Below, in pieces: positions 34,794 to 46,383 of a stretch of 64,000 nucleotides of DNA. The notes below the pieces were generated by a model. That model worked only from the letters and a program-made list of their open reading frames with translations, had not been told where the DNA came from and did no database searches. This stretch comes from a phage: sequence record NC_129898.1; one strand, written 5' to 3'. Within the stretch, counting starts at the first letter, position 1; every line of letters begins with the position of its first letter. The position numbers and the translations under genes are program-made.

Positions 34794-34823
34794 AGGCCCT
34801 GCCCGAAAGGGTGGGGCTTTTTG
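34794..34823 (+). terminator. rho-independent terminator
   Basis: Hairpin gccctgccc-gaaa-gggtggggc plus T-tract; near-identical copy at 45915. Confidence 0.65.
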
Positions 34824-34840: not shown

Positions 34841-35605
34841 TTGAAATTTATCTACAAAGAACACTACCACAAAGGTGTTGTGTGGAGTCTATTTGACGGG
34901 TCTGGTGGTGCAGTTATTGACTGGGCAAAAGCTGGATATCTGTGCCTGTGCTTTAACGCAGAAGGCGCTGACCATGGCAGTTATGCAGAGGTGATAACCG
35001 ATCATCCAAACATTCACTACGTGGATTATTGGATTGACCCGTGGTTTCCTCAAGAAACTTTTTGCATGTACCCAGCTCCAGACTTTATTCTTGCATTTCC
35101 TCCGTGCACGCATTTAGCAGTATCAGGTGCTGCACATTTTAAGAAAAAGCTGGCTAAGGATCCTCTGATTCAAATTAATGCTGTAAAAGATGCTCGGGTT
35201 GCAGAAGAGTTAGGAGAGATTTACGATTGCCCGTGGCATGTGGAGAATCCTGTGGGAGTTATGTCCACACTGTGGCGAAAACCTGATTACCGTTTTCATC
35301 CTTCAGATTATGGCGGGTATTTACCGGAGGATGATGTAAACCCGTGGTTTCCTGAATTTATAGCTCCACGTGATGCCTACCCAAAAATAACTTGCGGTTG
35401 GATAGGCAATGGATTTATAATCCCAGCCACAAAACCTGTTCCGCAAATAGTAGATGCGGTTAGTGGTTATTCTATGCAACACGCTAAGCTAGGTGGAAAG
35501 AGTGCAAGGACGAAGATGATTCGAAGCCTTACACCACGTGGCTGGGCTAAAGCTGTATTCTTAGCAAACGAGCCTGCAGTAAGGAGCAGAATTAATGGGC
35601 AGTAA
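34841..35605 (+). CDS. compact cytosine-5 DNA methyltransferase-like protein
   Basis: Motif I SLFDGSGG, motif IV-like FPPCTHLAVSGA, motif VI HVENPVG; TTG 34841 chosen after RBS AGGAGA (track starts at GTG 34811 inside the terminator); no obvious target-recognition domain. Confidence 0.55.
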   Translation: MKFIYKEHYHKGVVWSLFDGSGGAVIDWAKAGYLCLCFNAEGADHGSYAEVITDHPNIHYVDYWIDPWFPQETFCMYPAPDFILAFPPCTHLAVSGAAHFKKKLAKDPLIQINAVKDARVAEELGEIYDCPWHVENPVGVMSTLWRKPDYRFHPSDYGGYLPEDDVNPWFPEFIAPRDAYPKITCGWIGNGFIIPATKPVPQIVDAVSGYSMQHAKLGGKSARTKMIRSLTPRGWAKAVFLANEPAVRSRINGQ

Positions 35606-37673
35606 ATTCATGGCATCTGCATACAACCGTTTCGGTGAGCCAAACCCGAAAGCAACCAAATATAAAAGTGGGGGGAGTGTGAAACGAGACTATCGTGATG
35701 AAAAAGAGGTCGAAACTGTAGAGACTGTTTTAGAAAATACTAAAATTGTCCCTGTCCCACAACAAAATATCGGACTAATGGCTGCACAATACTTTGGTGT
35801 GCGATCAGCATTGTCTCAAGAAGATGGGGTAACGGTCACTGCAACATATTTCCCATATTACGACCGCTACGGTAATCTATCTGGCTTTAAAAAGCGCGAC
35901 TGGACAATCCCTAAAGAGCAAAGAGGCCATTTCTCAGTTGTTGGCATAGTAAAGGCCAACTCTCAGATGTTTGGTCAAAAGCTGTGTGCATCCTCCAACA
36001 ACCGCAAGCAGATTAACGTTTGTGAGGGGGAAGGGGATGTTATTGCAGCATGGCAAGCTGCATATCAGATACAAGTGAAAGGTATTCTCACCAATGCTAA
36101 AGCCCCCGCGAAGGTGAAGCAGTGGGCTAAAGAAGTTCAGGATGGGATCGATGCAGTTATCAACGGCGGCGATCTGGCAGGAAAACCCTGCCTGCCTTTT
36201 GTTGGAATTAACTGCGGGTGTGCAAACGCCGTAGATACTTTTGCTAACAATGAGAAATTTATCCGTAGCTACGGAACAGTGGTCCTTGCAATGGACAACG
36301 ATGCAGCTAACGAGGTAGAGAAGCAAAAACACGTTATCAAAGGTGTTGAGGCCACACATAATATCGCAGCATTTTTGATGGCTGATAACGTTTACCACGT
36401 GGAATACCCAGGTGAGGTAAACGACCCTGATGGTGTAAAAGATATTCGTGACATGCTGAAGGCTAAAAAGCTGGAAGATATTGTCAACATGTTCCGTCAC
36501 CCAGTTAAATATGTGCCCGATGCTGTATCTGATTTAGAAGACTTCTCCATTGAGTCTCTTCGTAAGAAGACTTCCAATGGCGTGGATATCAGTGCGGAGT
36601 TCCCTAAATTGCAGAAGATGCTGAAAGGGCTCCACAAAGGCACCTTGATGATGCTGACAGGTCCATCTGGCGGTGGTAAAACAACTGTAGCCAAGAAGCT
36701 GGAACACTGCATCGCAAGATACTTGATGGATCCAACATGCCCTAAAGCTGATGATTATGAAGAGGATGATCGCCTGTGTCTGATTCACCTTGAAGAGGAT
36801 CCTGAGGAAGCAATCAACTCTCTGTACGCTAACCAGTTGGGGTTTGATGTTAAAGAGTTTGTTGAAGACCCTAGTCAGTTCCTGACCGACCAGGAGCACG
36901 CTGAGATTCATCAATCTTGGGCCAAGGCCGGAAAAATCAAAGTGTTCAAGCATTTCGGCTCCATCCCTGTGGATGAGCTGATCACTAAGCTTAAACAAAT
37001 GGTGTGCCTGTATCACTGCCGTTACATTGTGCTGGATCACTTGTCTATGGTGATTTCAGGGCTTAATGTTAAGGATGAGCGCAAAGAACTTGACATGGCT
37101 ATGACCCAACTAGCTGCGTTCTGTAAGCAGTTTAATGTGTTTATCCTGGTGATTGCTCACCTGAAACGTACAGAGATTGTACCTCCTAAGGATAAGGATG
37201 GGAATCCGTTGCCTTTCTGGTACCCTGTACGAAAAGAGAACCTTCGTGGTAGTGCCGGATTGGAGCAACTCAGCTGGGTAGTTGTTGGGGTAGAAGCAGA
37301 AGAGATGGTGGATCGTTCTCGTGGGCGTGTCCGTCTAGTAGGTCTTAAAAACCGTCCAGCAAAAACGTTAGGTATTGCGGACACTTTAGTTATGGATCCG
37401 CACACAGGCAAGTTCCACGATGCCAGCAATTGGTACTGGGATAAAGAAATGCAAATGTTTACAGACGGAGAAGGTGGGGAGGTTGTTTGGAGACCTCAGG
37501 CTATGTTTGAGGATCAGGATCATGCAGTTGTGGAAACACCTATGGGCAAGGTTGTGGCTGATAAGGTTGTAACTCCTACTGTTACCCCAGTTGACACACA
37601 GGAAGACCTTCAGTATGATGATCCGTCCTCTAACCACGTTCCTGGTTTTGAAGACGACGAAACACCTTTTTAA
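35595..37673 (+). CDS. bifunctional primase-helicase (Toprim primase plus DnaB-like helicase, T7 gp4-like)
   Basis: Toprim acidic motif VVLAMDNDAANE, Walker A MLTGPSGGGKTT, Walker B-like YIVLDHLSMV. Confidence 0.75.
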   Translation: MGSKFMASAYNRFGEPNPKATKYKSGGSVKRDYRDEKEVETVETVLENTKIVPVPQQNIGLMAAQYFGVRSALSQEDGVTVTATYFPYYDRYGNLSGFKKRDWTIPKEQRGHFSVVGIVKANSQMFGQKLCASSNNRKQINVCEGEGDVIAAWQAAYQIQVKGILTNAKAPAKVKQWAKEVQDGIDAVINGGDLAGKPCLPFVGINCGCANAVDTFANNEKFIRSYGTVVLAMDNDAANEVEKQKHVIKGVEATHNIAAFLMADNVYHVEYPGEVNDPDGVKDIRDMLKAKKLEDIVNMFRHPVKYVPDAVSDLEDFSIESLRKKTSNGVDISAEFPKLQKMLKGLHKGTLMMLTGPSGGGKTTVAKKLEHCIARYLMDPTCPKADDYEEDDRLCLIHLEEDPEEAINSLYANQLGFDVKEFVEDPSQFLTDQEHAEIHQSWAKAGKIKVFKHFGSIPVDELITKLKQMVCLYHCRYIVLDHLSMVISGLNVKDERKELDMAMTQLAAFCKQFNVFILVIAHLKRTEIVPPKDKDGNPLPFWYPVRKENLRGSAGLEQLSWVVVGVEAEEMVDRSRGRVRLVGLKNRPAKTLGIADTLVMDPHTGKFHDASNWYWDKEMQMFTDGEGGEVVWRPQAMFEDQDHAVVETPMGKVVADKVVTPTVTPVDTQEDLQYDDPSSNHVPGFEDDETPF

Positions 37674-37731: not shown

Positions 37732-40155
37732 ATGAGTATGTGGTCTTTCGATCTGGAGGCCTCTGGCTTGCTGGAAGATCCAGATCTTTATTATCACTGC
37801 GGTTTGTTTAAAGAGCTGAATAAGAACCGTTTTATGCTGTTCCTTCCTCTAAATGACCGCACACACTACTCGGAAGAGGATGTAGAGAAGGCTAAGAACT
37901 TTATTCTGGCAAAGAGAACTCTTTATAAAGATTTTGAGGTTCGCATAGCAGATTTTTCAGAGTTGGAAGGTTGGCTTACAGGCAACTCAGACTGGTCACC
38001 TACGGCTTTGAACTGTCATAACTGCTACAGCTATGACTTTATGCTGATGGAAAGATTATCCGGTGTTCATTTTGATATGTTCCGTGATCCTAAATGTATG
38101 GGGACTATTAACGACCACCAGGTTAATCTGTTTGATACGTTGGCGATGAGTCGAATCTTGTGGCCTGACCGCCCTTTGCCAAAAGGTTGTCCGGACGCAG
38201 TATTCAATCCAGTTACCAAGAAAATGCAGCCTGTTGGGCCTCATGGCCTTATGGCATGGGGCTATGCCCTTGGTAACCAGAAAGTTCAAATCGATGACTG
38301 GCGTGAGCTTCCGCTGTGGAAGTATGTGGATCGTGTGTTCGAGGACGTTATCATCCAGGAGTTGCTCTGGAAAGAGTTGGTAGCGGAATCAAAAGGTGTA
38401 TTCTACGGCAAATCTGACATGCAGAACTTTATGTATGACCCTGCCAAAGAGAAGCCTAAAGGATTCAAGAAGATTACCTGGAAGAATGCATTACGCCGAG
38501 GCATGCTGCAGCATTTCCTGATGGAGCTGCAGGCTCGACAGGGTGTGTATTTCGACATAGATGGGGCTATTGCTTTACGTGACCGCTGCGATGCGTGGAT
38601 GAAAGAGATCGCTGATCGTGTTGAACCACAACTTCCTTTAAAAGAGTTATCAATGTCTCAGCGGCCTAAGTTCCCTGAAAAGCCGTTTAACCAGGATGGG
38701 ACAATCTCCAATAATGGTTGGAAATGGTTAAAAGACAAGCTTGGCTATCCTGTGGATATGAGCGCTTTAGAGTTCAAAGCTCCTCCTAAGCGAGCATTTA
38801 CCTCCACAGGGGATGTCAGTAAAATGGGGATAAAATGGTGTGAAGAGATGGGCTGTAAAGACCCAGATAAGATGGCTGATTTCTTGAGAGGGTATATCAA
38901 AGGAACTTCTACACCACACCCTTTACCTAAAGAGCTAATGGATCAGGCAATAAGTGACCTACAGCAGAAGCGAATGCCTGACTGCAAGATACCTATGAAA
39001 ATCAGCAATCAGGACGACATCAAGCGATACCTGATCAGTGCTGGTTGGCTCCCAACAATGTGGAGAACTAAGGATGTAACTAAAGACAGCAAGAAGAAAG
39101 CTCTGCCTGATGCTGATGTTGATGCACGAGTATATGCATATATGGACGAGCTTTTAGAGTCAGAGTATTGTGACCTAATTATCAACTTCTGGAACAAAAC
39201 TGATGCTAAGTTTCAGACAACCGTGCACAAGTTCCGAAGCTTCCCTAACTCAGAAAGGATTAAAAAGGAAGTGTTTGGGAAGATACGTAGAAAAGCCAGA
39301 GCGCTTATTACTTCTCCGCAACTGAAAGATACGTTTGGACACCTATGTCCGAATCTTGAAAAGTTGAACGGAGAGATGGCTAAAGATATCGTCTTGTGGT
39401 TATCCTTGCGAAACCGTAGATCGGTCCTTGATCCAATCAAGGAGGATAAGGTTGATACTGGTCTTCTTAATCATCCACGTTTGAAGATTGACCATAAGCT
39501 TCCTGCTAAAAGTTCTGGATTAACAAACACTTCCAGACAGAAACACAGCATTTGTGCAAACATGCCTAAACCATCTCCTAAAGTGGTTATGGGTAAAGAG
39601 ATGCGTAGTCTGTGGGGTGTTCCTCCAGGATACTTTGAGATCGGTATTGACGGGTCCAACTTAGAGCAGCTTATCGGGGCTTGGGGTGCCTTTGAGTTCG
39701 ACAACGGCCTGTACTATGATGTTGTAAGTAACGGGGACGCGCACCAAAACAATGCTGAGGCATATACAAAGGTAGCAGGTAGGGAGGTGTCTCGTAACGA
39801 TGGTAAACCTATCACGTATGGGGTTATGTATGGGGCACAAAAAGATAAAGTTGCAGATATGCTGGATATCTCTCCAGAGCTGGGGCAGAGAGTAATCGAT
39901 GCTCTCTGGGATGCCAACCCAGGCCTTAAGGGGCGTAAAGAGGATCTGGAGAAATTCTGGGAAGCAACAGGTAAGAAATTTATCTACTCTTTTGACGGTC
40001 ATGCCATTTGGACCCGCTCTAAACACTCTTTGCTTAATGCATATCAGCAAAATGGCGGTGCATCGTTGTGCGACTTGGTCGGAATCCTCATGCACCACCA
40101 AATGGTGAAGCGTGGATGGTATGATGAGGGTGTTCGTCGTATTATTTATTACCAT
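37732..40155 (+). CDS. family A DNA polymerase, exon 1 (3'-5' exonuclease and most of polymerase domain)
   Basis: Exo I motif FDLEASGL; motif A-like IGIDGSNLEQL; motif B RNDGKPITYGVMYG; frame as annotated stops 1 codon after the proposed splice site, before motif C. Confidence 0.8.
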
Positions 40156-40483
40156 AAATAACATTGTGGCTTCGTGCAGTGATGCACGTCGAAAACCTCT
40201 TTAATTGACGGGAAGGCTAAGTTGACTTTTACACCTAAACATGGTAAAAGCTCAATATGCTAATCCGCAGCGAAGCATCCGAGAGGATGAACGTTCAGAG
40301 ACTATCGAAAGCATAGCTCCAACACAGTTTGGGGTGAAGAAGCGAGTAGAGTAGGCCAGCAAGTGCGGTCGAAATGAGAGGTGCCTTGGTAACAAGGCAG
40401 TGAGATAGTCCGATCCATACGGGAAACTGTATGGCTATGCACGTAATGGTGCGGGGTAGCTTAACGACCTACCTGAACTATTG
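40156..40483 (+). ncRNA. group I self-splicing intron in the DNA polymerase gene, no internal ORF
   Basis: Conserved core elements P (aattgacgggaagg 40203), Q (aatccgcagc 40262), R (gttcagagactatc 40303), S (gagatagtccg 40402); 5' exon ends in U, intron ends in G; guide-like gtgg at 40167 pairs with exon end ccau. Confidence 0.7.
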
Positions 40484-43627: not shown

Positions 43628-44038
43628 ATGGTGTCTCCTTTATGTTGTTCAAATAAAATCGGAGATTCCACAATGGAACAAATGAACGATCAAGCGTCGG
43701 TTGCGATGAACGAGCAAGAACAACCTCAAGACTTTTTCTTAGGGTTAAGCAAAGATCAAGTGTCTCTTCTGTTGGTACTTTCTTCTTTCATGGGGAGACT
43801 TCAGGAGCTTACACAACAACCGGAGGCTGAACAGTTATTTCAGGCCCTGCGTGAAGAAGAAAAATATCGTCGTTTGGATTATGCCTTAGGTTGGGTAGCT
43901 CAACAACGAGATATGCTAATGGCCCTTTCTGGGACAACAAGTTTTGCAATGGGACTGTTGGCTCAAGTCCAGGACAAATTAATTCAGGCAGGGTTTGCAA
44001 ACACAGCGACCACTAACGAAGAACAAGGAGACAAATAA
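43628..44038 (+). CDS. hypothetical protein
   Basis: 136-aa ORF after RBS AGGAGA. Confidence 0.5.
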   Translation: MVSPLCCSNKIGDSTMEQMNDQASVAMNEQEQPQDFFLGLSKDQVSLLLVLSSFMGRLQELTQQPEAEQLFQALREEEKYRRLDYALGWVAQQRDMLMALSGTTSFAMGLLAQVQDKLIQAGFANTATTNEEQGDK

Positions 44039-45309
44039 TGAGCGTTATTCAACAATTCACCAACCCGATGAATCCGCGTGAAACTGTTTTACTGGCTCAC
44101 GGTATGATTAAACGTGTCAGCATCAAGCCTATCAAAGGTGCTGATCCTACAACAGGTATTAAAACCACTGTGTGGCAAGGTAAGAAAATCGAGTCCAGTC
44201 ACACCATCTCTTTACTGATTTCTGAACTGGATTCTTCTGATAACCTACTTCAAGGTGGTGAAGAAGTTTGGATCAGCATGGGTGATAAATTGCTCAAACC
44301 CGGTCATCAAGATTCCGTCTCTGTTAAAATTGATGACAAGTGGGAAACAGTAACGCCAGGATGGATCGTAAATATCCCTTTAAAGGCAAATGAGCATAAC
44401 GGTAAGACCTACTACAAAGGCTCATTGGCTAAAATGGTTAAGCTGGGGGCAGGAGATGCTCCAGCAGCCCCACAGCAACAAAAACAGCAACAAGGCACAC
44501 AATCACAAGGCCAGAAGCAGAAACCTCAGCAGAATGCCAATCAGGACGTTTTACGCATCTATGGTGATGTGACTCAGATTGTTGGTAACGTGGTTACTGT
44601 CAATGACCACAAGATTGGCGAAGGTGCTATGGTTGTCTCCGATGAGCAGCTTAAAGACCTGGTGGTTGGCGGTCGTGTTGCAGCTATTGTTGACAAAGAC
44701 ACCGGGAATATTATCAGCGGCTTCAAGGCCTACCCGCCTAAAGCAGAGAACGGTACACAAGGTTCTGGTGGTAAGCGTAAATCCTCTTACGACCCCATCG
44801 GTGTAGAGACAGGGCACAGTATCAATGCGTTGCAGATCATTCTGGATCGCGGGTTTAAGATTGACAGTCCTTTAGATGTGGCTAAAACACTGCACGTGGT
44901 CACCATCGAGCTTAAGAAAGAGTACGCTCAAGCCACCAACCGAACTGAAGATGAAGTAGGTGCCAGTGTTGGTAATGCGGTATTGAACGCTTGTCGCCGT
45001 ATTGACAAGAAGACGAAAGTTGATGATTTTGCAGTAGCAATTACTGCAGAGGCAAAAGATGTCTTGACTAATCTTGCTGAACCGTTGTATGATTGGATCA
45101 AGAACGGTGCTGGAGCCACTGACCATCAAGAGCCTCAAGCTGCCAAACAGGAAGCCTCCCCACAGCAAAACACTGTAGACGCCCCTCCTGTAGATGATGC
45201 GGAAGATGACCCAATGGATCAGAATCCAGCACAGTATGACTTCTGTGATGACATACCTTTCGCTCCGGTGGGTTTGCAATATGGCAAAAGTAGAATCCAC
45301 GCATTGTAA
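44038..45309 (+). CDS. putative DNA-binding protein with Gln-rich linker and SSB-type acidic tip motif (DDIPF)
   Basis: 423 aa; low-complexity [25 protein letters not shown] linker; DFCDDIPF at 45247-45261 resembles the SSB C-terminal tip but is followed by 15 more codons. Confidence 0.35.
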
Positions 45310-45904
45310 GAGGTGCATCAAGTGCGGAGAGGTGAAAAACCTCTCCGAGTTCTACAAACACCCAAAGATGTCTGACGGTCATCTTAATAAGTGCAAAGAG
45401 TGTTGTAAGAAGGCCAGTAGGGAGGCTGACCAGTTTTCCCACGACTCTTCAGAAAAAGGTGTAATACGCGTGTTGTACAAGGCTCAAAAGTGCAACAGCA
45501 AGCAAAGAGGTCACCCTCCTCCGACTTACACCAAAAAAGAGTTTAAGGAGTGGCTATACCTGAACGGTTACAAAGAGTTGTATGACCAGTGGGTAGCCAG
45601 CGGATACGACAAAAGGAAAAAGCCCTCTTGTGACAGGATAGATGATTTCAAAGGGTACTCTTTTGATAATATCCGTTTAACGACCTGGGGAGAAAATAAA
45701 GACAAGCAGACGGAGGATATTCTGTTGCATAGAAGCACCAGCGGTAGACGGTGTAAAAATGTAAGGAGGTTGGACATGAATGGCAACGTTCTTAAAGAAT
45801 GGGTATCCCACAATTCTTGTAGAAGAGAAACCGGAATATGTGTTGATTACTACATTCATGAAAAAATTCCAGCTCCCGATGGATACCTCTATGAATACTT
45901 TTAG
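45281..45904 (+). CDS. HNH-family homing endonuclease-like protein
   Basis: ATG 45281 (track begins at 45194); N-terminal CxxC...CxxC cluster; motif [25 protein letters not shown]; overlaps the 3' end of the upstream gene. Confidence 0.55.
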
Positions 45905-45914
45905 CACCTAACTG

Positions 45915-45945
45915 ACATAGCCCTGCCCGAAAGGGTGGGGCATTT
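45915..45945 (+). terminator. rho-independent terminator
   Basis: Hairpin gccctgccc-gaaa-gggtggggc plus T-tract; duplicate of the element at 34794. Confidence 0.65.
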
Positions 45946-45966
45946 TTGTATAAGGAGATCTGAAAA

Positions 45967-46383
45967 ATGACATTAGAAGATATCATTGTTAAACCTGAGA
46001 ACTATGACCAATACAATCTATCAACTCAATCTGTGGACCTTGGATGCGCTACGGTCAGTGCGTGGCTGGTTAACGGAAAAGAGCTGGATAAATGCTTAGA
46101 AGCTCACATGACTGTGAACAAGTTCCTTGATGAAAATACTCACTGGCTTGAGGGTGCAGGCGTATATGCTTCATGGTTGGAGAGTATGGGATTCGACTAC
46201 CAATCTGAAGAGGGGTGGTGGAGCTATTTAGCTATCTGTCCAGAGACGCTACAATGCTTCATGAAATATTCTGAAGATTTGGAGTACCGGGCGAGGGTTG
46301 ATAGTGCTATTGCCCGTTATAGCCGTAAACCTTTTTCCCACGACATTAAAACTGTGGAAGAATTTGTTGAAGTTTTCTGTTGA
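45967..46383 (+). CDS. hypothetical protein
   Basis: 138-aa ORF. Confidence 0.5.
   Translation: MTLEDIIVKPENYDQYNLSTQSVDLGCATVSAWLVNGKELDKCLEAHMTVNKFLDENTHWLEGAGVYASWLESMGFDYQSEEGWWSYLAICPETLQCFMKYSEDLEYRARVDSAIARYSRKPFSHDIKTVEEFVEVFC

Follow-up and report, generated by a model that had tools for sequence, protein, structure and literature searches.

The biology of SSB, the bacterial protein that binds single-stranded DNA, rests on a free C-terminal Phe, which docks on more than 12 genome-maintenance proteins. SSB-interacting proteins receive this residue in a hydrophobic pocket, with a basic lip anchoring its alpha-carboxyl and a basic ridge accommodating the Asp residues (PMC10164576). Among phage proteins, Bas52_0087 from phage RudolfGeigy is a factor required for triggering the DRT10 reverse-transcriptase defence, and was termed SSB-like from predictions, namely two oligonucleotide/oligosaccharide-binding (OB) folds and an FDDDIPF tip; DRT10 escape mutations in this protein were D252V and Y351C, and ExoI dosage modulates the defence (bioRxiv 10.64898/2026.04.29.721553). 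Here, we focused on its orthologue in a 64,000-nt stretch of phage DNA (NC_129898.1; this whole stretch is called the window), in which the SSB-type acidic tip is followed by a 15-residue tail, and a predicted homing endonuclease gene begins within the tail codons. Our overall reading, to which we give a probability of roughly 60%, is that a conserved tail module on the SSB-like tip and a mobile endonuclease have been joined as one 640-nt cassette in Vequintavirus. The locus thereby points to a natural, conserved form of the SSB tip in which the Phe is internal. The corresponding rV5 gene is gp209, and the genome paper of that phage contains no discussion of gp208 or gp209.

Alleles at the 3' end of the SSB-like gene

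Nucleotide comparison gave 92-97% identity between the locus and 116 phage records from the rV5 group, and we assign the source phage to Vequintavirus (rV5-like coliphages). Approximately 115 close-relative phage records of the host gene were compared at the junction, 51 with and 64 without the endonuclease, and three locus lengths were observed: 2801 nt (window), 2748 nt and 2161 nt (class c). Class a, with 31 records including the window, rV5 and Bas50, has an endonuclease with at least 95% identity, and the host protein ends in FCDDIPF plus the tail, which is overlapped by the 207-aa endonuclease open reading frame (ORF). In the 20 records of class b (e.g., bov10K2 and Bas51), where the endonuclease is 80-95% identical, the host gene ends FDDSIPF-TGA and a 192-aa version of the endonuclease, with its own GAGG ribosome-binding site, starts 8 nt past that stop. 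The remaining 64 records (class c, e.g., FV3, EdH4 and Bas52) have no endonuclease and are 640 nt shorter than class a; the alignment with endonuclease-free relatives that a preliminary description of this DNA had proposed showed that they end exactly in FDDDIPF-TAA, followed directly by the terminator. Moreover, junction alignments placed the endonuclease stop of classes a and b at the exact position of the host TAA in class c.

Overall identity to the window is interleaved between the allele classes, so the presence of the endonuclease does not track phage relatedness. The last 24 nt before the junction are, nonetheless, class-specific (4/4 loci in class a, 4/4 in class b and 7/7 in class c), whereas polymorphisms further upstream are common to the classes. 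The tip codons read TTC TGT GAT GAC ATA CCT TTC in 4/4 class-a loci and TTT GAT GAT GAC ATY CCN TTT TAA in 7/7 endonuclease-free loci. Class-specific haplotypes of this type are the pattern expected of a homing endonuclease that would target canonical tip DNA, with carriers holding resistant variants. Two further loci showed reduced endonucleases. V18 (L048 1666-2210) has a class-b junction and a decayed endonuclease, 42 nt shorter, where only a 129-nt ORF is annotated. In L008 (4255-4340), a metagenomic relative with an 83% identical host gene, the tail is intact and approximately 20 nt of each endonuclease end are left, which we read as an internal deletion of the endonuclease leaving the tail in place.

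Within the window, DDIPF is encoded at 45247-45261, and 15 sense codons (45262-45306) separate it from the TAA at 45307-45309. The preliminary description had likened this motif to the extreme end of bacterial SSB, and both the ORF and the comparison with SSB fragments support it: enterobacterial and Vibrio SSB ends match the window tip, fragments P0151 and P0158 ending in ...NEPPMDFDDDIPF. A free ...DDIPF-COOH end is absent from the window protein, where 15 residues follow the motif, and present in the untailed alleles of its relatives. Instead, PF is followed directly by AP[IV]GL[QM][YH], approximately four residues, and [IL][HY]x[ILMV] at the C-terminus.

The host protein is 96-99% identical to its counterparts in rV5-like phages, and its gene is syntenic with rv5_gp209 and bas52_0087. 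The profile phrog_4477 stops at residue 408, i.e., at the tip Phe, and is annotated as function unknown. No Pfam match was found for the 423-aa protein at E up to 0.1, and the PF00436 domain is lacking. An AlphaFold2 (AF2) model based on 34 homologues showed two beta domains (1-138 and 171-232) joined by a disordered Q-rich linker, then a four-helix domain (253-357) and, at 364-423, a disordered acidic tail, the last 15 residues having a predicted local distance difference test score (pLDDT) of about 40 and no docking on the monomer. Foldseek matches of this model were generic OB-fold proteins (RPA, bacterial and phage SSBs, DUF2815 and LEF-3) at weak scores (best E 9e-3). These matches agree with the SSB-like, two-OB-fold description of the orthologue, and binding to single-stranded DNA (ssDNA) is predicted from fold and motif. 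Residue D252 is almost invariant across the homologue alignment. In the course of these comparisons, 16-20 records titled 'Campylobacter phage' (MG0656xx, host C. jejuni) were found to be 93-94% identical to rV5-like coliphages over this locus, and their host labels look doubtful.

Regarding the endonuclease gene, the ORF map confirmed the previously noted ATG at 45281, inside the 15 extra codons. This ORF is in another frame than the host gene and overlaps it by 29 nt, covering the last nine tail codons, and the host TAA sits within the endonuclease Cys-Lys codons TGT AAG. Its frame is open for 87 nt upstream of the ATG (45194-45280), inside the host gene; a -1 frameshift fusing the SSB-like protein to the endonuclease was considered and dropped, as there is neither a slippery site nor support for a fusion product. 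The matching family phrog_1035 is annotated 'endonuclease VII'. The protein combines an N-terminal CxxC...CxxC zinc ribbon with a predicted PacI-like beta-beta-alpha-Me (HNH-type) core; its AF2 model has a pLDDT of 91, with PacI as top Foldseek match (E 1.2e-2, probability 0.98), and by sequence it matches PacI 3ldy weakly (E 0.17), with the common motif DRxD..GYS..N.RL. In many phage groups and contexts, distantly related proteins carry the annotation HNH homing endonuclease, and some homologues have NUMOD-type domains. The enzyme would be an ordinary, free-standing PacI-like HNH homing endonuclease of a known kind.

Downstream of the endonuclease, the preliminary description had reported a duplicated terminator at 45915. 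An identical 22-nt hairpin does exist at 34796-34817, 11 kb off, with 0 copies expected by chance, but there is no tandem duplication at 45915. Downstream of each hairpin copy (34796-34817 and 45920-45941) come a T-run, similar in the two, and an AGGAGA ribosome-binding site; the repeat looks like a dispersed terminator-plus-ribosome-binding-site cassette, not a local duplication.

Table 1. Coordinates of the SSB-like locus and of related features (window positions, unless a locus identifier is given).
Feature	Position	Strand	Remarks
SSB-like protein gene, orthologue of rV5 gp209 and Bas52_0087	44038..45309	+	423 aa; phrog_4477, E 2e-172
SSB-type acidic tip DFCDDIPF (residues 401-408)	45238..45261	+	Cys in place of the canonical Asp
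15-codon tail capping the tip	45262..45306	+	Fits PF-AP[IV]GL[QM][YH]x4[IL][HY]x[ILMV]
640-nt cassette (tail plus endonuclease ORF minus stop)	45262..45901	+	Between the Phe codon and the ancestral stop position; absent from endonuclease-free relatives
GGTGGG, possible weak Shine-Dalgarno sequence of the endonuclease gene	45267..45272	+	8 nt before ATG 45281, inside the tail codons; suggested by its position
Predicted free-standing homing endonuclease gene, 207 aa	45281..45904	+	phrog_1035, E 4e-41; PacI-like fold
Intrinsic terminator, original one of the SSB-like gene	45920..45949	+	Hairpin GCCCTGCCCGAAAGGGTGGGGC plus T-run; common to all allele classes
DnaB-like primase/helicase gene	35595..37673	+	Ends ...FEDDETPF*, free PF tip without tail; orthologue of the P8734 helicase
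Family A DNA polymerase gene	37732-40161		Follows the helicase gene
epsilon34 gp35, tailed ssb	L044 757-1263		

Distribution, selection and exchange of the tail

The C-termini of 78 homologues are found in two states, ending either at ..[IV]PF or 7-10 residues beyond an AP[VI]GLQY extension. All major clades include tailed members, and the tip stays fully conserved beneath the tail. Tailed genes devoid of an endonuclease include PVP-SE1 gp038 and BIS47_17, where a terminator and a convergent tail-fibre gene lie directly downstream, L017, the phi92-like L026, BT-1011, K290, epsilon34 and the P8734 helicase. The first four of these are endonuclease-free orthologues with the same extension, the very outcome that the preliminary description had named as refuting its suggestion that an endonuclease gene inserted at the 3' end of the host gene and altered its C-terminus: an optional 640-nt insertion is indeed located exactly there, but the 15-residue extension is no accident of that insertion. 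A PVP-SE1-like orthologue (P0045) carries the UniRef name 'Tail fiber protein', probably a mis-transfer from the adjoining convergent tail-fibre gene.

Beyond these orthologues, a 20-residue tip-plus-tail query retrieved 230 phage records. Among canonical PF00436-type SSBs, those of BT-1011 and K290 (Vibrio phages) and of epsilon34 (P22-like) bear tails, and so do the small SSB of Drexlerviridae ECH1 and ACG-M12 and the SSB of Pseudomonas phage Torfinnsbu. In addition, the primase/helicase of Klebsiella phage P8734 (L038 500-2563) ends in DDDTPF-APIGLQYAKHAIYVI; as this protein is an orthologue of the untailed window helicase, the tail module is used on a helicase too. An exhaustive profile search over 1.8 billion cluster representatives, seeded by short SSB fragments from a 40-aa tail-alignment search, returned approximately 55 tailed representatives at E <1e-3, belonging to PF00436, DUF669 and several Pfam-less families of 250-480 aa, and many SSB fragments from the 40-aa search bear tails as well. 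Of 5426 complete E. coli genomes, at least 158 contain an ssb 3' end of the epsilon34 type with its tail, in prophage genes annotated as plain ssb. Overall, the tail is a widespread optional module, attached to tips that end in PF on several unrelated proteins of ssDNA binding and replication. No paper printing or discussing the tail motif was found in the searchable literature, and the module appears undescribed.

Across 12 lineages, tail codons 1-8 showed a proportion of synonymous differences (pS) of 0.82, meaning that synonymous sites are saturated, and a proportion of non-synonymous differences (pN) of 0.11 (pN/pS 0.13), with conservation strongest directly after the Phe. Because synonymous sites vary freely and amino acids rarely change, the tail is a translated peptide, which we consider highly likely to be under purifying selection.

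We also looked at how the tail and the endonuclease travel. In the genus Vequintavirus, every tail found is accompanied by the class-a endonuclease or by what remains of it. In L014, the host gene is 44% identical to that of the window, whereas the endonuclease is 75% identical and the tail shares 13/15 residues; DNA identity at the L014 tip rises from approximately 50% to 67-90%. Since tail and endonuclease are far closer to those of the window than the host gene is, a joint transfer of both is indicated. Moreover, L006, L014 and L022 share the overlap '..T ATG CCT TGT AA..', and ECH1 has an equivalent. This geometry, in which a Tyr codon of the tail supplies the endonuclease start and the host TAA is embedded in the endonuclease TGT AAx, therefore returns in phages that differ widely. 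Tails are also seen to move independently, in a mosaic exchange between lineages that these alignments support, with proteins of 81% identical bodies bearing different tail subtypes and bodies only 34-38% identical sharing one. In the 318-aa protein P0071, with a phi92-like body, the tip is doubled (...DDVPF-DDDIPF-APIGLQYGMNLLHAMP), as though a tip-plus-tail unit had been gained behind a resident tip.

Small zinc-ribbon endonuclease genes directly follow untailed alleles too (class b, L016 and L035), and the 3' end of SSB genes thus appears to be a general hotspot of endonuclease insertion. A general association of the tail with an adjoining endonuclease was considered and rejected, the lineage count not being significant. 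Endonuclease-like genes following or overlapping SSB genes were located at L039 1853-2263, L043 1327-1683, L016 3691-4116, L035 1908-2381 and L022 3696-4181. The carriers are Drexlerviridae, a Pseudomonas phage and several contigs resembling Vequintavirinae. Most of these genes begin with an N-terminal zinc ribbon of the form C.KCG..K....FYKH...DGHLNKCK.C, of which the Torfinnsbu copy (L043) retains the second half only.

Explanations for the cassette and its tail

That the 640-nt segment is a mobile cassette is, in our judgement, very probable from the allele comparisons. During mixed infection, the endonuclease would cut class-c alleles at or close to the DNA that encodes the canonical tip (TTTGATGATGACATYCCNTTTTAA). 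Carriers would be shielded both by having this site interrupted and by substitutions linked to it (Asp to Cys in the window and Asp to Ser in class b), and recombinational repair would then copy the endonuclease, and in class a the tail, into the cut genome. Another account would be that the insertion just displaced the stop codon, so that the protein reads through into 15 meaningless residues and its tip is damaged. Such an outcome would fit the exact FDDDIPF-TAA ends of the endonuclease-free close relatives and the confinement of the tail, inside the genus, to genomes with the endonuclease or its remnant. Nevertheless, we regard it as very improbable: phages of other genera that lack the endonuclease have the same tail, as do unrelated protein families, the low pN/pS with saturated synonymous sites speaks against it, tail genes elsewhere are not near-identical DNA scars, and the class-b junction is an insertion that supplied an immediate stop codon. 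A free tip at Phe408 could also be restored at the RNA or translation level by a hidden intron, an intein or recoding, and the preliminary description had indeed raised an unrecognised splicing element. Excising 45262-45901 would join ...CCT TTC directly to TAG, and rV5-like phages carry introns in the terminase gene (PMC3606486). However, scanning 44900-46100 against Rfam at E up to 10 gave only noise, with no intron or ribozyme; the endonuclease ORF accounts for 621 of the 640 nt inserted; the class-b gene is free-standing, placed after the stop and equipped with a ribosome-binding site of its own; where a tailed gene lacks an endonuclease, there is nothing to splice out; and no slippery heptamer occurs at the Phe codon. 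Conservation of the tail at the amino-acid level implies, in addition, that it is translated, and the splicing or recoding explanation therefore appears extremely improbable.

The two other alternatives accept a translated tail and concern its function. The tail may be a removable pro-peptide or degron, with a host or phage protease cutting between Phe and Ala, or trimming, to expose the tip, so that both allele types would be equivalent. Full conservation of the tip under the tail, a conservation peak right after the Phe, the sampling of nearly all alleles as either a PF end or the whole tail, and the free swapping between both states by near-identical relatives all agree with this, as does the bipartite build of the tail (conserved AP.GLQY, spacer, hydrophobic C-terminal tripeptide), which resembles adaptor-plus-protease tags such as ssrA. 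We know of no protease or cleavage site of the Phe|Ala kind, and processive degradation from the C-terminus ought to take the tip along with the tail, which makes this explanation quite unlikely. Alternatively, the tail could be a mere cap keeping ExoI, other SSB-interacting proteins or tip-reading defences such as DRT10 off the tip. The need of the pockets for the alpha-carboxyl of the terminal Phe (PMC10164576), the triggering of DRT10 by the untailed Bas52_0087 in a defence modulated by ExoI dosage, and a presence/absence polymorphism typical of arms-race traits, with Bas50, Bas51 and Bas52 representing the three allele types, are in line with such a role. Yet any extension would cap the tip, so that a cap does not account for AP[IV]GLQY being strongly conserved in distant phages, and the DRT10 escape mutations lie at D252 and Y351, outside the tip; we consider a mere cap rather unlikely.

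As to what a conserved tail module would do on the SSB-like tip, the tip Phe of tailed proteins has no free alpha-carboxylate and should not fit the standard pockets of host SSB-interacting proteins. Tip and tail would then constitute one extended internal docking motif for another partner. A conserved host protein is the probable candidate, since gamma-proteobacterial hosts are almost all that the carrier phages have in common. This docking function is the role that we favour for the tail, as a tentative suggestion. A wider version of it is more doubtful still, namely that tip plus tail is a bipartite docking or switch motif on many phage and prophage ssDNA-binding proteins and helicases, shuttled by tip-targeting homing cassettes, through which SSB mimics might be redirected to a specific partner or hidden from tip-sensing factors and defences, e.g., along the ExoI/DRT10 axis. 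A clamp-binding reading of the tail, similar to a PCNA-interacting peptide, was dropped, as its spacing misfits the consensus.

Several observations weigh against the view of a conserved tail module joined to a mobile homing endonuclease. The tail is dispensable in nature, relatives with 94-98% identical bodies lacking it, and its exclusive occurrence in Vequintavirus with the endonuclease or a remnant means that hitchhiking would explain it there without any benefit to the phage. Adjacency of tail and endonuclease across lineages is not significant (approximately 6/14 tailed versus approximately 3/17 untailed). The AF2 model leaves the tail disordered and indicates no partner. On the side of the endonuclease, no Pfam match was found and HNH membership stands on the weak scores given above (E 0.17 and 1.2e-2), with the first His of the canonical motif being Arg (DRID) in this family, as in PacI. 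Finally, the anatomy of the locus, its presence/absence polymorphism, the linkage, and the conservation and selection of the tail are shown by the comparisons, whereas cleavage, homing and the binding partner of the tail are inferred.

Regarding significance, the internal-Phe form extends over at least six protein families, hundreds of phages and prophage ssb genes in approximately 3% of complete E. coli genomes. The SSB-like orthologue triggers a reverse-transcriptase defence, the threshold of which varies with ExoI, an enzyme that binds the tip, and the effects of capping are directly testable, because the BASEL collection holds all three allele types (Bas50, Bas51 and Bas52). Moreover, the locus is a clear example of a homing endonuclease cassette bringing a coding extension of its host gene, and, if the switch-motif reading is true, a selfish element would rewire a host-interaction motif while moving.

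Comparison with known systems

Among known systems, Bas52_0087 is an orthologue of the window protein at the same locus, with approximately 96% identity, two OB folds and D252 kept. Unlike the window protein, which has FCDDIPF, the tail and the endonuclease, Bas52_0087 is untailed, endonuclease-free and ends in FDDDIPF*. The likeness to the E. coli SSB C-terminus (DFDDDIPF) consists of a disordered acidic C-terminus with the same motif, homologues even sharing ...PPMDFDDDIPF; in the window protein, however, the Phe is internal and followed by 15 conserved residues, no alpha-carboxyl is available for the pocket, and the body is not of the PF00436 type. Phage T7 offers a further parallel, as its gp2.5 and gp4 have acidic tails ending in Phe, and in the window the SSB-like protein and the primase/helicase share such tips beside a family A polymerase gene. 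The difference is that the terminal Phe must be free in T7, whereas in rV5- and P8734-type phages either protein may bear the tail; we know of no capping module in T7.

The predicted endonuclease resembles PacI and HNH homing endonucleases of the I-HmuI type in its zinc-ribbon-flanked beta-beta-alpha-Me core and in the DRxD..GYS..N.RL motif, but differs from them in its weak scores and in the absence of a Pfam match. With respect to its genomic setting, the best comparison is SegG beside gene 32 in T4-like phages, a case of intronless homing and marker exclusion (PMC2988022). In both cases an endonuclease adjoins an SSB gene, is flanked by conserved genes, occurs in some close relatives and is missing from others, and is accompanied by linked polymorphisms in the adjoining coding sequence. 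SegG, in contrast, is a GIY-YIG enzyme, whereas the window endonuclease is PacI-like and HNH-type, overlaps the 3' end of its host gene, and has a predicted cleavage activity; and one variant, that of the window, brings with it a functional-looking peptide extension of the host protein.

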